A program made the position numbers and the translations under genes. From NCBI GenBank assembly GCA_048882025.1, contig JBHLSA010000042.1, positions 1 to 10,336 of the forward strand: a stretch of DNA of 10,336 bases. The letters are read 5' to 3'. The notes beneath the pieces are model-generated. The model did not search any database. It was not told the DNA's origin and saw only the letters and a program-made list of their open reading frames with translations. Positions 350 to 7,603 of this stretch are shown one piece after another (positions within the stretch are counted from its first letter, which is position 1; the number at the start of each line of letters is the position of its first letter). The DNA is from Candidatus Thorarchaeota archaeon (GTDB lineage Archaea > Asgardarchaeota > Hermodarchaeia > Hermodarchaeales > Hermodarchaeaceae).

Positions 350-396
350 GGAACGCGTCTTTTTCCTTTACGCGCATCGGGCCGGTAGTCTAGTTA

Positions 397-423
397 TCCA
401 GTTACAATACGTGCTGGACTAGA
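397..423 (+). other. tRNA-Pro intron 1 (D-loop position); boundaries uncertain (27-31 nt)
   Basis: Helix T391-T394 / A418-A421 (extendable to 389/423), 3-nt bulge T395 A396 T397, inner helix C398-G401 / C414-G417. The BHB cleavage rule gives 397-423. A 31-nt excision (about 394-424) would instead give a conventional D loop AGCGGTA. The repeated TAG makes the junction ambiguous from sequence alone. Confidence 0.55.
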
Positions 424-438
424 GCGGTATGATGCGAG

Positions 439-468
439 AAGAAAAACGGGTTCTGTTTTTCTCGCAAG
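439..468 (+). other. tRNA-Pro intron 2 (between anticodon-stem positions 30 and 31), BHB motif
   Basis: Central 4-bp helix T433 G434 C435 G436 / C463 G464 C465 A466. Bulges A437 G438 A439 and A467 G468 G469. Inner 8-bp helix A440-C447 / G455-T462 with a 7-nt loop. Cutting after the 2nd nucleotide of each bulge removes 439-468 (30 nt) and yields the required anticodon stem CGAGG/CCTCG. Confidence 0.75.
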
Positions 469-514
469 GTTTGGGACCTCGTGGTCCCGAGTTCGAATCT
501 CGGCCGGCCCACCA

Positions 515-4872: not shown

Positions 4873-5069
4873 CGCTAATAGTTCCAGAATATCAGAGAAA
4901 CATAAGAAATTATGTTTTCAAACTAACCCCATAATGATGGCTAGTTTGATGTGATTTTTGTGCGGGGCATCCCGTAAACGGGTATATGGTTATTCAGATT
5001 ATGGTGTTCAATCATTTGGGAGTAGCAGTGCAGGTGATTCGAATTTTAAGGATTAAGCGTGTTGTTGTT

Positions 5070-5219
5070 TTATGTTTTGGTTAGTCGTTTGTAGCCGAAG
5101 ATGGCTACCACGATTATGGCGTAAATGGTGTAGAGTATCGTTCTAACTAGATTGTTCCATTCTGGTTGAACGAGGCCAAATATTGAGGTGAACAGGACCA
5201 GTGAAAAGTTTGATGACAT
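5070..5219 (-). CDS. Possible small (49 aa) two-TM membrane protein
   Basis: My own translation gives ATG (5219-5217) ... TAA (5072-5070): MSSNFSLVLFTSIFGLVQPEWNNLVRTILYTIYAIIVVAIFGYKRLTKT. It has two hydrophobic stretches separated by a polar turn and a basic C-terminus. It is below the ORF-track length cutoff, with no SD and no recognised homology. Confidence 0.3.
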   Translation of the reverse strand: MSSNFSLVLFTSIFGLVQPEWNNLVRTILYTIYAIIVVAIFGYKRLTKT

Positions 5220-5376
5220 ATGAAAAAAGATAATTAACCAAGACCCTGTATTACAAATTAAAGCTGAATTGTAGCATCTTTATTTCTAATATGAGTAGCA
5301 TAATACTAGGCTGTTTGAACTACCACCCAAGAAAGCACACTAAAGGTTACTCTAAGCATAATTGAGGCGAAAGTTC

Positions 5377-5796
5377 ATGTGTTCTCAGAGAAAAGCTACT
5401 CAATCAAAACAGGAGAGGCTAATCGAGCGATTCGAAAAGGGGCTTCAGCGTTTAATTGAACTCTCAAATGAGGATGTGCCAATTGTCGTTGAAGGTATTA
5501 AGGACATAACGGCCTTACGTGGCTTAGGACTCACAGGACCAATACACAGCCTAGCGGGGCATAATATCGTTAGTTTAGCAGACGAACTTACCCACTATCG
5601 TCGCTTGCTCATACTATTTGATTTTGATAGGCGTGGAGGACAATTAACTCGACACCTGATTAACCAGCTAGAAGGGCGGGGCGTTGTCATTCTTCATCGA
5701 GTACGACAGCAACTAAGGCGAGCATTTTGTTGGCGTGTTCGAGTGATAGAAGGGCTAAAGCCAATAGACCAATCTCCGAAAGGCACAAAGTTTTAA
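5377..5796 (+). CDS. Small Toprim-domain protein (primase-like / RNase M5-like)
   Basis: Toprim signature: conserved Glu in PIVVEGIKDITAL and the DxD motif in ILFDFDRRGG, in a protein of about 140 aa. ATG 5377 is preceded by GAGG (5364-5367). The ORF-track start TTG 5362 overlaps that SD-like sequence and is less likely. Confidence 0.8.
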   Translation: MCSQRKATQSKQERLIERFEKGLQRLIELSNEDVPIVVEGIKDITALRGLGLTGPIHSLAGHNIVSLADELTHYRRLLILFDFDRRGGQLTRHLINQLEGRGVVILHRVRQQLRRAFCWRVRVIEGLKPIDQSPKGTKF

Positions 5797-5930
5797 TGGG
5801 GTTTATTCGTGAAGCTAACTACATCACATTTACCATATTACCTCATCATCACTAACTAATCACATGATGGCGTGCTCAATATCACACGCCCGCACTAAAC
5901 ATCAAAAATTACTATTACTAGGTGGCGATT

Positions 5931-6054
5931 ATGGGAGCAAATGCAGAAAGCACCAGTACTACTAAATATTGTATTCGTGGAAAAATCGAAATAGATGGAG
6001 TTGTGGAAACCCCCGATGTGGTAGGCGCCCTCTTTGGCCAAACTGAGGGCCTAC
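5931..6054 (+). CDS. dnaG: DnaG primase, exon 1 (N-terminal 41 codons plus 1 nt)
   Basis: ATG 5931 is preceded by GGTG (5922-5925). Translation is [41 protein letters not shown], the conserved archaeal DnaG N-terminus (KYLI..K.E.DGVVE.PDVVGAIFGQTEGLLG). Read straight on, this frame stops at TGA 6072-6074. The segment is absent from the ORF track because it is under 60 aa. Confidence 0.8.
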
Positions 6055-6082
6055 ACTTCATATCGTTGATTTGAAGGGGCAT
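6055..6082 (+). other. Candidate 28-nt bulge-helix-bulge intron within the dnaG coding sequence
   Basis: Central helix G6049 C6050 C6051 T6052 / G6077 G6078 G6079 C6080 (3 Watson-Crick pairs plus 1 G-U). Bulges A6053 C6054 A6055 and A6081 T6082 T6083. Inner helix C6056-A6060 / T6072-G6076, extended by ATC (6062-6064) / GAT (6068-6070). Cutting after the 2nd bulge nucleotide joins ...GGC CTA C to TC GGC GAA GAT TTG, which reads G L L G E D L. Confidence 0.6.
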
Positions 6083-7227
6083 TCGGCGAAGATTTGGATT
6101 TAAGAGAGCTTCAACAGTCGGGGCGAATTGGTCGAATAAAGGTCGAGTTACGGTCTGAAAGTGGTAAATCACATGGAACGATTACGATACCTTGTAGTCT
6201 AGACCGAACGGAGACTGCAATTCTTGCTGCAGCAATGGAAACCGTTGATCGAGTTGGTCCTTGCGCAGCAAAAATTACCCTTGAAAAATTAGAGGATGTC
6301 CGTGAAGAAAAACGGAAGCGTATTATCGATCGGGCTGTAGACTTATTACGAGATTGGGAAGGAGAAATTTCTCCTGATTCCCAAGAAGTAACAGATACTG
6401 TCCTTAAGGAATCGCGTACAGCAGGTATCATTAAAATCGGCAAACAAGCACTTCCTGCAGGTCCTGAAGTTGAAGCTTCAGATACCATTATTATTGTTGA
6501 AGGGCGTGCAGATGTGTTAGCGCTCCTTCGATCAGGCATTAAGAATGCCGTTGCCGTTGAAGGCACTTCCATCCCGAAGAGCATTATCAATCTAGCGAAA
6601 TCTAAGACCGTCATTGCGTTCCTTGATGGAGATCGAGGTGGCGATTTAATTCTCAAAGAATTAGATCAAGTAGTAAAGGTAGATTATGTAGCACGGGCAC
6701 CAACTGGGCGAGAGGTTGAAGAACTTACTCATAAAGAAGTTACCAAAGCCCTTCGAAACAGGGTTCCAGCAGAACAAGTCCTAACCAGAGTTAAACGACG
6801 CGCACCAAAAGCTACTCCACCTTCGGTAAAAGCTAAACAGCGAACTCGTCAAACTTCAACTGTAAAACCCAAAGCACCCCGCAGCAGAGCAAGAACTAAA
6901 CCCACTACAAAGGCCCCAATTAAACCTAAAGATCTCGGTATTCCCAAAACTGTAATTGAAACTGCGGAAAAAGTCCAACAGACGATGATGGCATTCGTTC
7001 TTGACTCGGATTTAAAGCAACTAAAAGAAACACACGTTGGGGAGCTAGCCAATGATTTACAGAAGCTCAAAACGGCTAAAGTGCTTGTTTTAGATGGCGT
7101 GATAACTCAAAGGCTAATAGACATTGCAGAAGAACGAGGCGTCGAACTAATAATTGGCGTCAGAATTGGTAATATTGTCAAAAAACCCGCGAAAATGCGA
7201 ATTCATACATTTGGAGAATTAAAATAG
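6083..7227 (+). CDS. dnaG: DnaG primase, exon 2 (Toprim core, basic linker, C-terminal domain)
   Basis: Continues (L)GEDLDLRELQQSGRIGRIKVEL...SLDRTETAILAAAMETVDRVGPC. The Toprim motifs are IIIVEGRADV and AFLDGDRGGDLI. The ORF track reports this frame from TTG 6094, but the frame is open from 6070 and homology begins at GEDLDL (6085). join(5931..6054,6083..7227) is 1269 nt, giving 422 aa. Confidence 0.92.
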
Positions 7228-7315: not shown

Positions 7316-7603
7316 GTGGCTGAAATTAACACCAAACTCATTGGAATTCTCCGGGTTCTTGGAGTCATATTCCTAGTTGGCGCGGGTTTGGTTGTGATAG
7401 CAGATCTAGCTTTTAACTTGGATTGGAACCAAACATCCTCACTCTTCTTTCTAAGCTTTCTTCTTATCTGTGGACTTTGCTTTGGCATAACAGGCATTAT
7501 GTCTGAAAACCCAGAAAGAACGCGAAAACTGTTCTTTGAATGGTTAGTTGTCATTACAGTTATTCTCGTGTGGGTTGTGGGAGTTTACGCATTTCTTCCT
7601 TGA
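7316..7603 (+). CDS. Hypothetical small membrane protein (about 3 TM segments)
   Basis: 95-aa ORF with three clear hydrophobic stretches (LIGILRVLGVIFLVGAGLVVIADLAF, LFFLSFLLICGLCFGITGIM, WLVVITVILVWVVGVYAFL) and a GTG start. The antisense ORF 7294-7554 is basic and low-complexity, so it is disfavoured. This does not resemble the ATPase proteolipid: there is no Gly-rich helix or conserved carboxylate pattern. Confidence 0.55.
   Translation: MAEINTKLIGILRVLGVIFLVGAGLVVIADLAFNLDWNQTSSLFFLSFLLICGLCFGITGIMSENPERTRKLFFEWLVVITVILVWVVGVYAFLP

Follow-up and report, generated by a model that had tools for sequence, protein, structure and literature searches.

The dnaG gene of a Candidatus Thorarchaeota archaeon is broken over two reading frames, and the 28 nt between its two parts (positions 6055–6082, + strand) are very probably an archaeal intron of the bulge–helix–bulge (BHB) type, in the relaxed HBh′ form, situated within the coding sequence. 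The window—the whole stretch of DNA analyzed here—has a length of 10,336 nucleotides. Comparison of the locus with its relatives strongly supports the intron interpretation, and, as judged by these sequences, the element adds a new gene and a new phylum to the known archaeal BHB pre-mRNA introns. For more than 20 years, endonuclease-type introns have been known from no archaeal protein-coding sequence other than cbf5 of Crenarchaeota (PMC7714728, PMC2738675). Another one, deeply conserved and in a different gene, would show that mRNA splicing by the endonuclease route is not a crenarchaeal oddity; in Asgard archaea, the prokaryotes most closely related to eukaryotes, it would be the first, none having been reported before.

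The interrupted gene and its spliced product

Exon 1 of dnaG (5931–6054, + strand) encodes Met1 to Leu41 and contributes with C6054 the first base of the Leu42 codon. Exon 2 (6083–7227, + strand) begins with UC, bases 2 and 3 of this codon, and continues from Gly43 to Lys422 and the stop. In frame A, translation runs from the ATG at 5931 to FGQTEGL, the last Leu codon being CUA at 6051–6053, and ends at a UGA at 6072–6074; frame B has a UGA at 6067–6069 and is then open to the stop at 7225–7227. That the DnaG blocks sit in different frames, as a preliminary description of this DNA had stated, is confirmed by the translations and by the list of open reading frames, in which the gene appears as two pieces (5922..6074 and 6094..7227). 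The sequence AGGTG(G/A)CGATT is found immediately 5′ of the exon 1 ATG and is kept in relatives.

Deletion of 6055–6082 yields a 422-aa product reading GL-L-GEDLDL, with CUC (C6054, U6083, and C6084) as the Leu42 codon, and the near-invariant DnaG motif GQTEGLLGEDLDL is regained. The preliminary description had proposed that cutting after the second nucleotide of each bulge restores the consensus, and this holds: under the rule, Leu-Leu results from excision of 6055–6082 only, and moving the deletion by 1 to 3 nt either way replaces the conserved Leu residues by F, H, or P. Matched to the NCBIfam profile NF003108 (DnaG), the spliced product scores 522 bits and covers the whole profile, with residues 12–417 on profile positions 1–419 of 419. 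It aligns without gaps to 20 intron-less DnaGs; all of them share G40 and L41, and conservation reaches at least 90% at L42 and G43.

Archaeal DnaG is an exosome-associated Toprim protein that acts as an exosome cap protein. Its motif GQTEGLLG(E/D..)LDLRELQ is free of gaps at the junction in intron-less DnaGs of Asgard, TACK, Euryarchaeota, and DPANN, which bears out the earlier statement that these blocks are contiguous in orthologues; no archaeal DnaG examined outside the clade is interrupted at this site. A search of PDB sequences returned no archaeal DnaG. In the AlphaFold model of an intron-less Thorarchaeota homologue, the junction region features a helix-loop-helix with a pLDDT of 83 to 87, so that the junction appears, in this model, to fall into an ordered and confidently predicted part of the protein.

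The protein databases mirror the interruption. All 52 protein clusters with at least 64% identity are either N-terminally truncated or start with a read-through of frame B, and protein searches with the full-length product and with the spliced N-terminal 143 aa returned no contiguous spliced-form DnaG from the clade. The 68 more distant matches listed cover 98 to 100% of the query, with the exception of two Freyarchaeia DnaGs (P0092 and P0111), in which a long C-terminal insert breaks the alignment and the N-termini are contiguous. Intron-containing loci were the only clade loci returned by a scan of metagenomes. An annotation error is thereby exposed—every one of the clade's DnaG clusters is truncated or carries a spurious N-terminus—that affects any alignment or marker set including these clusters.

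RNA structure and conservation of the insert

The central helix H consists of 4 bp between GCCU at 6049–6052, at the end of exon 1, and the intron bases GGGC at 6077–6080 (both + strand), and is paired in every single-sequence fold. It is followed by the 5′ bulge ACA at 6053–6055, which is unpaired in every such fold and in which cleavage is predicted after C6054, and by the inner hairpin h′ at 6056–6076, with a stem of 6056–6064 and 6068–6076 and a loop of 6065–6067. The stem has a U-U mismatch at 6061/6071 in the window, and these positions are paired in most relatives. On the 3′ side, the bulge or loop AUU occupies 6081–6083, with cleavage predicted after U6082 and with U6083 as second base of the Leu42 codon. 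The fold set out in the preliminary description (6049–6052/6077–6080, bulge 6053–6055, 6056–6060/6072–6076, and 6062–6064/6068–6070) is identical to the minimum-free-energy fold of 6044–6088, which has an energy of −12.7 kcal/mol and a z of −2.0; 7 of 200 shuffled sequences fold as well.

Both the 5′ bulge and the inner helix of 9 bp conform to the canonical BHB. The motif is poorly formed in its 3′ half: single-sequence folds show a 2×2 internal loop at the 3′ site instead of a clean 3-nt bulge. The outer helix, already described as weak, indeed has at most one closing pair, G6048–C6084, and the pair counts over 17 sequences give it no covariation support. A strict hBHBh′ motif, with two 3-nt bulges between outer and inner helices, is thus not present. 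The element features the parts of the relaxed HBh′ form, namely helix H, one well-formed bulge with an adjacent helix, and a second site in a loop two nt past H. A scan of both strands of the window for the relaxed motif gave 302 matches versus 289 in shuffled sequence, so the motif alone proves nothing; the chance of finding it at a given start and length is about 1.4 × 10⁻⁴. Hence, the exact position and length of the dnaG element exceed chance, whereas the relaxed motif by itself does not. RNAalifold on a 60-nt alignment recovered the inner hairpin independently and did not predict helix H, one strand of which is used by a competing exon-1 hairpin. No Rfam match was found at the dnaG site. 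A dispersed repeat resembling a MITE was considered and rejected since the element occurs once per locus, and only in dnaG, among the loci examined.

When the orthologous dnaG loci of relatives are compared, as the preliminary description had called for, the insert lies at the identical nucleotide in 25 of the 25 loci covering the site, with a length of 28 nt in 24 and of 31 nt in the remaining one (L161). These relatives are metagenome-assembled genomes labelled Hermod- or Thorarchaeota, with DnaGs 64 to 82% identical. Pairs were counted over 17 sequences, with L161 left out because its MAFFT placement was structurally inconsistent; folded separately, it shows the hairpin rebuilt from different sequence. 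Overall, 98% of cells are paired, compared with 35 to 49% in slid controls. The inner hairpin (97.4% of cells paired) carries two compensatory double changes, C-G to U-A at 6059/6073 (L003) and A-U to G-C at 6062/6070 (L163), and its loop is hypervariable. In the 17 sequences, 98.5% of the cells of helix H are paired. Its pairs vary between G-C and G-U and between C-G and U-G: the changes are one-sided only, without a double compensatory change, and include a single G-A mismatch (L085). The ACA of the 5′ bulge is invariant in all 17.

Codon-type variation has a different distribution. Counted over 19 distinct relatives, the variable columns at codon positions 1/2/3 amount to 2/3/26 in the last 30 codons of exon 1 and to 36/14/97 in the first 100 codons of exon 2, a pattern indicative of strong purifying selection on both exons. 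The insert has 13 variable and 15 invariant columns out of 28, lacks codon periodicity, and is more often invariant than synonymous exon sites. Judged from these counts, coding-type variation is confined to the exons and the insert is conserved in the manner of an RNA, not of codons.

The junction itself is constrained beyond its coding content. Third positions are invariant in only 7 of 130 codons around it, and two of these, Leu41 CUA and Leu42 C|UC, are the codons that make up the predicted splice sites. Both residues have six-fold degenerate codons, and intron-less genes use CTT, CTC, CTG, CTA, TTG, and TTA at these places; A6053, a synonymous Leu position, never varies in the clade. On the 3′ side, relatives have U, A, or G at position 6082, and U6083 and C6084 never change—the pattern expected if the cut falls between 6082 and 6083.

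The same contig encodes a tRNA-Pro(UGG) with its CCA at 379–514 (+ strand). ARAGORN finds no tRNA at 379–514 in the raw sequence and recognizes it only after removal of two introns, one in the D-loop (396–424, + strand) and one in the anticodon stem (439–468, + strand), both of which the motif scan recovered exactly. Each consists of helix H, a 3-nt bulge, and an inner helix, as does the dnaG element. The tRNA had been described with a single intron obeying the same cut rule; the rule stands, and the number of introns is two. Since this tRNA-Pro needs two relaxed introns to be removed, the genome depends on the splicing of relaxed BHB motifs.

Competing explanations

The DnaG frames could also be joined during translation. 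A programmed +1 (or −2) ribosomal frameshift from frame A to B, aided by the hairpin, would produce a DnaG with 9 to 10 extra residues in GLLGEDL. Such a shift is permitted only downstream of the final stop in frame B and upstream of the first stop in frame A, an interval that the preliminary description had narrowed to 6070–6074; the sole +1 interval found is 6070–6071. There, AUU at 6069–6071 is the one codon at which a shift is permitted, and the UGA at 6072–6074 comes immediately after it, in a loosely RF2-site-like arrangement. An insert length of 3n+1, as seen in both variants (28 and 31 nt), is needed for a frameshift and not for splicing, where it amounts to a 1-in-3 coincidence, and cbf5 introns were formerly taken for frameshifts (PMC2738675). 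However, the permitted interval lies at intron nt 16–17 in the window and in six relatives (L002, L003, L007, L008, L085, and L087) and no later than nt 11 in L001; L163 has no such interval, its frame-A stop beginning at nt 9 and its frame-B stop extending to nt 15. The intervals do not overlap between relatives, so that they share no conserved shift site free of stops in both frames, and L163 is left without any solution. The insert lacks codon periodicity and varies most in its hairpin loop, and the product would carry a variable insertion of 9 to 10 aa in a motif that is ungapped in 20 other DnaGs. A frameshift is, hence, very improbable. Still less credit is due to translational bypassing in the style of T4 gene 60, in which the peptidyl-tRNA would leave before the hairpin and land beyond it. 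A stable hairpin is situated at the gap, and the window offers possibly matched take-off and landing codons (GGC at 6048–6050 and at 6085–6087), but a hop from GGC to GGC would lose Leu-Leu-Gly of the invariant motif, and covariation of the Gly codons is absent: they are GGC/GGU in L001 and GGU/GGC in L003. A stop after the take-off codon is lacking, so the combination of matched codons and such a stop that marks a gene 60-type bypass is not found, and since no Leu-type landing codon precedes the GGY, a hop cannot yield the consensus.

Split genes occur in archaea, and dnaG might be one of them: exon 1 would yield a peptide of ~47 aa by itself, and exon 2, read from a start of its own, an N-truncated DnaG; the two would associate noncovalently or the N-terminal module would be dispensable. 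Gene callers annotate this split form, with ORFs of 47 to 50 aa and of 365 to 411 aa, and purifying selection on exon 1 holds under either model. Against it, exon 2 has neither a conserved start codon nor a Shine-Dalgarno sequence: the first possible start in frame B varies in position between 32 codons upstream of Gly43 and 86 codons downstream, and near the junction none is an ATG. The break would also disrupt the N-terminal domain in its most conserved motif, a helix-loop-helix in the homologue model, and would leave unexplained the conserved helix, bulge, and hairpin, the synonymous junction sites that never vary, and the exact consensus residue created upon excision. We regard a split gene as improbable, if somewhat less so than the two translational routes. 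An artefact or a decayed gene—an indel from sequencing or assembly, or a pseudogene—might be suspected of a single 10-kb contig of a metagenome-assembled genome whose annotated protein is truncated. This explanation is effectively refuted: three independent assemblies from different runs reproduce the window at 99.9 to 100% identity, 19 distinct sequences, obtained from many samples, carry the same insert, and the strong purifying selection on both exons argues against decay.

Proposed splicing route and related systems

For the intron reading, we infer a route of cleavage, ligation, and exact junction as follows. In the pre-mRNA, the intron would form a 9-bp hairpin stacked on the 4-bp helix of GCCU and GGGC. 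The tRNA-splicing endonuclease EndA would cut within the ACA bulge, after C6054, and symmetrically on the 3′ side two nt beyond the helix, after U6082. An RtcB-type ligase would then seal C6054 to U6083, which would create the Leu42 codon CUC and allow for synthesis of the 422-aa DnaG. The intron was probably gained once, at the base of the Hermod-/Thorarchaeota-labelled Asgard clade, and retained since. Asgard archaea, a Thorarchaeote included, possess an (αβ)2 EndA whose L1 loop makes it less specific (PMC5829648), and Asgard tRNAs are rich in non-canonical introns (PMC11291895). The genes for EndA and RtcB both lie outside the window; that the host encodes a broad-specificity enzyme is indirectly suggested by the tRNA-Pro of this contig, which would require one.

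The closest known counterpart is the BHB intron in the pre-mRNA of cbf5, a pseudouridine synthase gene of Crenarchaeota (Watanabe 2002; Yokobori 2009, PMC2738675). Both introns are short, interrupt a protein-coding sequence of a gene of RNA metabolism, are restricted to a clade, have a relaxed cleavage motif (a frequent one in cbf5), and occur in lineages with a hetero-oligomeric EndA of broad specificity; in both cases, the frame is disrupted, and gene callers misannotate the gene or suspect a frameshift. They differ in the host gene, dnaG, and in the phylum, Asgard archaea instead of Crenarchaeota; moreover, splicing was demonstrated by RT-PCR and in vitro cleavage for cbf5, whereas we infer it for dnaG. 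The preliminary description had named cbf5 as the sole established case, which is correct for protein-coding sequences and too narrow for mRNAs: a second BHB intron is known from the 5′ UTR of the HVO_1309 mRNA of Haloferax volcanii (PMC7714728). There, too, the tRNA-splicing endonuclease acts on an mRNA, as predicted for dnaG, but the HVO_1309 intron is untranslated, has a canonical BHB cut by an α′2 enzyme, and breaks no reading frame. Non-canonical tRNA introns with relaxed hBH or HBh′ motifs (Marck & Grosjean 2003, as cited in PMC5829648) share with the dnaG element, as do those of the tRNA-Pro in the window, the 4-bp helix, the 3-nt bulge, the inner hairpin, an outer helix of 1 to 2 bp, a size of 28 to 30 nt, and the cut rule. 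The dnaG element differs from them by lying in an mRNA, without a tRNA body for docking of the enzyme.

In eukaryotes, HAC1/XBP1 mRNA undergoes unconventional cytoplasmic splicing, in which IRE1 cuts twin stem-loops and a tRNA ligase (RtcB in metazoans) seals the ends. As proposed for dnaG, a small frame-shifting mRNA intron is removed by a structure-specific endonuclease and a tRNA ligase without a spliceosome; the differences lie in the endonuclease, IRE1, in the twin stem-loops instead of a BHB, and in the regulatory role, which is established for HAC1/XBP1 only. The strong conservation of the dnaG intron, together with the location of both archaeal coding-sequence introns in RNA-processing genes, leaves room for a role beyond tolerance. 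A far-reaching and rather unlikely extension would see in the dnaG intron the visible tip of a wider layer of Asgard mRNA splicing, hidden in genes annotated as “truncated” or “frameshifted,” and an EndA/RtcB-dependent switch on DnaG synthesis as a counterpart of HAC1/XBP1. A search for split ORFs whose frame break carries an HBh′ motif could uncover more mRNA introns in the intron-rich Asgard genomes, and positions 6030–6100 constitute a defined substrate with a natural series of variants.

Split reading frame of dnaG

The dnaG gene on the plus strand of this 10,336-nt contig consists of exon 1 (5931–6054) and exon 2 (6083–7227), separated by a 28-nt insert (6055–6082). Frame A opens with ATG at 5931, preceded by the conserved AGGTGGCGATT, encodes the first 41 residues of DnaG, and then reads HFISLI before UGA at 6072–6074. 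Frame B is closed by UGA at 6067–6069 and is then open as far as the stop at 7225–7227. In silico deletion of 6055–6082 yields a 422-aa protein reading ...GQTEGL-L-GEDLDL..., neighbouring 28-nt deletions placing Phe, His, or Pro instead of Leu. This product matches NCBIfam NF003108 "DNA primase DnaG" at 522 bits (cut-off 300), its residues 12–417 aligning with profile positions 1–419 of 419. The split frames and the restoring 28-nt excision of the preliminary description are borne out by both translation and profile match.

The interruption is real, conserved, and clade-wide, the clade being Hermod- and Thorarchaeota-labelled Asgard MAGs. A protein search divides cleanly into 52 near clusters and 68 more distant listed matches. 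The former share 64–100% identity with the query but never span more than 93% of its length, and they start inside exon 2 (MDLRELQ...) or with frame-B read-through, e.g., MAKLRAYASHRRCEGVIGEDLDL; P0001 is the window's own annotated DnaG, truncated to 377 aa and labelled "Candidatus Thorarchaeota archaeon" (Asgard). The latter—from Jord-, Loki-, Freya-, Baldr-, Sif-, Atabeyarchaeia, and other groups—feature 98–100% coverage and a contiguous FGQTEGLLG(A/E/S/V)ELDLRELQ; the two exceptions on coverage (P0092 and P0111, Freyarchaeia) carry a long C-terminal insert that breaks the alignment to the query, and their N-termini are contiguous. Relatives' DNA was taken from a genome scan (L001–L009), a metagenome scan (L081–L088), and exact protein look-ups (L161–L166 and L169). 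The comparison of relatives' dnaG loci proposed earlier finds the insert at the identical nucleotide in every clade locus including the site; it measures 28 nt in all 24 of these other than L161, where it measures 31 nt; the same regular expression gives uninterrupted 15-nt spacing in 18 non-Asgard archaeal loci. An assembly error is ruled out because L170–L172, three assemblies from different sequencing runs, are 99.9–100% identical to the window, insert included. A dispersed repeat was likewise rejected, as in the DNA compared the element occurs once per locus and in dnaG only. Neither the protein searches nor the metagenome scan returned a clade member in spliced form, be it protein or contig.

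All 52 clade clusters (P0001–P0052) are N-terminally truncated or bear a spurious frame-B N-terminus, and databases list the exon-1 ORF (47–50 aa) as a hypothetical protein of its own; this clade-wide mis-calling is a systematic annotation error. At about 1380–1460 of L084 (SMTZ1_10036733), ~74 nt of exon 1 are missing compared with its near-identical neighbour L083, ATGGGAG being joined directly to ACCCCCGATG; either misassembly at a short repeat or a genuine deletion could account for this.

Fold and conservation of the insert

The minimum-free-energy structure of RNA 6044–6088 (−12.7 kcal/mol, z = −2.0) features a central helix (6049–6052/6077–6080), a 3-nt bulge (A6053-C6054-A6055), and a hairpin (6056–6060/6072–6076 plus 6062–6064/6068–6070), so that the helix, 5′ bulge, and hairpin initially described are all present. 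The motif is poorly formed on its 3′ side: the 3′ site falls in a 2 × 2 internal loop in thermodynamic folds, and the outer helix, as already recognized in the preliminary description, amounts at most to G6048–C6084 and lacks covariation. RNAalifold recovers the inner hairpin alone and offers a competing exon-1 hairpin. The relaxed motif alone is not enriched (302 matches in the window versus 289 in shuffled sequence); the chance of a match at a given start and length is about 1.4 × 10⁻⁴, and the statistical weight of the motif lies in exact placement and conservation, not in frequency.

In an alignment of 17 distinct sequences, 98% of cells are paired in the proposed structure versus 35–49% with the 3′ partners slid by 1–3 columns. 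Compensatory double changes occur at two stem pairs, C6059–G6073 to U–A (L003) and A6062–U6070 to G–C (L163), and several further stem pairs alternate between Watson–Crick and G–U. The central helix carries one-sided substitutions only, with one mismatch (L085). The three hairpin-loop positions are almost random among relatives, and in L161 the top of the hairpin is swapped for a different sequence, 3 nt longer and still pairing. Variable columns fall on codon positions 1/2/3 as 2/3/26 in the last 30 codons of exon 1 and as 36/14/97 in the first 100 codons of exon 2; in the insert, 13 of 28 columns vary with no periodicity in any phase. As judged by these substitution patterns, only the exons carry a coding signal, and the insert behaves like structured RNA, not like coding sequence.

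Of the 130 codons on either side of the junction, just 7 keep the same third base throughout 20 distinct sequences. Two of these 7 are the six-fold-degenerate Leu codons at the predicted splice sites: CUA, whose last base is A6053, and CUC, split after its first base and ending at C6084. Intron-less relatives use CTT, CTC, CTG, CTA, TTG, and TTA for these two residues. If the cut lies between 6082 and 6083, the former position should be free to vary and U6083 fixed, as seen: the former is U, A, or G depending on the relative, and the latter never changes. Alignment columns 45 and 52 change jointly in 15 of 17 sequences. Column 45 holds 6080, where the 3′ strand of the central helix ends (C/U/A), and column 52 holds 6087, the wobble position of Gly43 (C/U); the joint change could reflect shared ancestry or a structural link.

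A +1 frameshift inside the insert would also join frames A and B, and both known insert lengths are of the form 3n+1, which splicing does not require. However, such a shift has room only downstream of the last frame-B stop and ahead of the first frame-A stop: at intron nucleotides 16–17 (6070–6071) in six relatives as well as the window, at nucleotide 11 or earlier in L001 and L086, and nowhere in L163, which a single shift cannot rescue. The tight limit given in the preliminary description thus holds but is narrower than its 6070–6074, and no +1 shift site is conserved across relatives. Were exon 2 translated independently from its own start, the first possible frame-B start would lie anywhere from 32 codons upstream to 86 downstream of Gly43, and it is never a conserved ATG. 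The break, moreover, interrupts the N-terminal domain at its most conserved motif, whose contiguity in orthologues was stated correctly in the preliminary description: the motif has zero gaps in 20 other DnaGs and forms an ordered helix–loop–helix (pLDDT 83–87) in the predicted structure of an intron-less homologue. A gene-60-type hop over the insert would lose Leu-Leu-Gly, and the codons available for take-off and landing are not a matched pair that co-varies. The best explanation, and a highly probable one, is a relaxed bulge–helix–bulge (BHB) intron removed by the tRNA-splicing machinery.

tRNA-Pro introns and known BHB introns in mRNA

In the raw window sequence, ARAGORN finds no tRNA, and Rfam gives just a weak tmRNA-like match at 448–514. 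The region 379–514 (plus strand) carries a tRNA acceptor stem, T-arm, and genomically encoded CCA, and ARAGORN accepts it as tRNA-Pro(UGG) only after in silico splicing of two non-canonical introns, both of which have to be removed: 29 nt in the D-loop (396–424) and 30 nt in the anticodon stem between positions 30 and 31 (439–468). Their 4-bp helices are CUAG/CUAG and UGCG/CGCA; in both introns the 5′ bulge is 3 nt long, the inner helix stacks on the 3′ strand, and there are just one to two outer pairs, and cutting after the second bulge nucleotide gives a functional product for both. The motif scan recovers both intervals exactly, as it does 6055–6082. The precedent drawn from this gene stands in that the anticodon-stem intron obeys the cut rule, but not in assuming a single intron. 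Since tRNA-Pro needs both introns removed, the genome depends on an endonuclease handling the relaxed HBh′ form (helix, one bulge, and inner hairpin). This agrees with the (αβ)2 splicing endonuclease EndA of Asgard archaea, including a Thorarchaeote, whose L1 loop is tied to broad specificity (PMC5829648), and with Asgard tRNA genes crowded with non-canonical introns (PMC11291895). On the same strand, 60 nt past the end of tRNA-Pro, is a 5S rRNA (574–692; 76.8 bits for Rfam RF00001), and the two may share a transcript.

The proposed mechanism is a known one; new would be the host gene, dnaG, and the phylum, Asgard. The one BHB intron in archaeal coding sequence named in the literature covered is that of crenarchaeal cbf5, whose motif is, like that of the dnaG insert, often relaxed, which is tied to the hetero-oligomeric endonuclease, and which was likewise confused with frameshifting in the past (PMC2738675). 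The earlier statement that cbf5 is the only case holds for coding sequences in the literature but not for mRNAs, as Haloferax HVO_1309 has a BHB intron in its 5′ UTR (PMC7714728). A 2025 structural paper on splicing endonucleases still limits its mRNA citations to cbf5 work (PMC12397907), and literature searches turned up no earlier account of the dnaG element. Archaeal DnaG is an RNA-binding exosome subunit (PMC7667871); therefore, both coding-sequence introns reside in RNA-metabolism genes. The proposed dnaG intron is of interest for specialists and directly testable.

Neighbourhood of dnaG

Directly upstream of dnaG lies a 144-aa Toprim-domain ORF (5362–5796). The pairing is syntenic, with 123–139-aa ORFs in the same position in relatives, some with weak Toprim_4 matches; the ORF would encode a minimal Toprim protein in addition to DnaG. 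The spacer 4873–5361 (490 nt) separates it from a divergently transcribed class-I aminoacyl-tRNA synthetase gene (Trp/Tyr family); neither this ORF-free spacer nor that at 2471–2849 (380 nt) has an Rfam match. On its other side, dnaG is separated from the gene for V-type ATPase subunit D by a conserved 94–96-aa ORF without Pfam match (7316–7603), which is found at this place in almost every clade locus examined.
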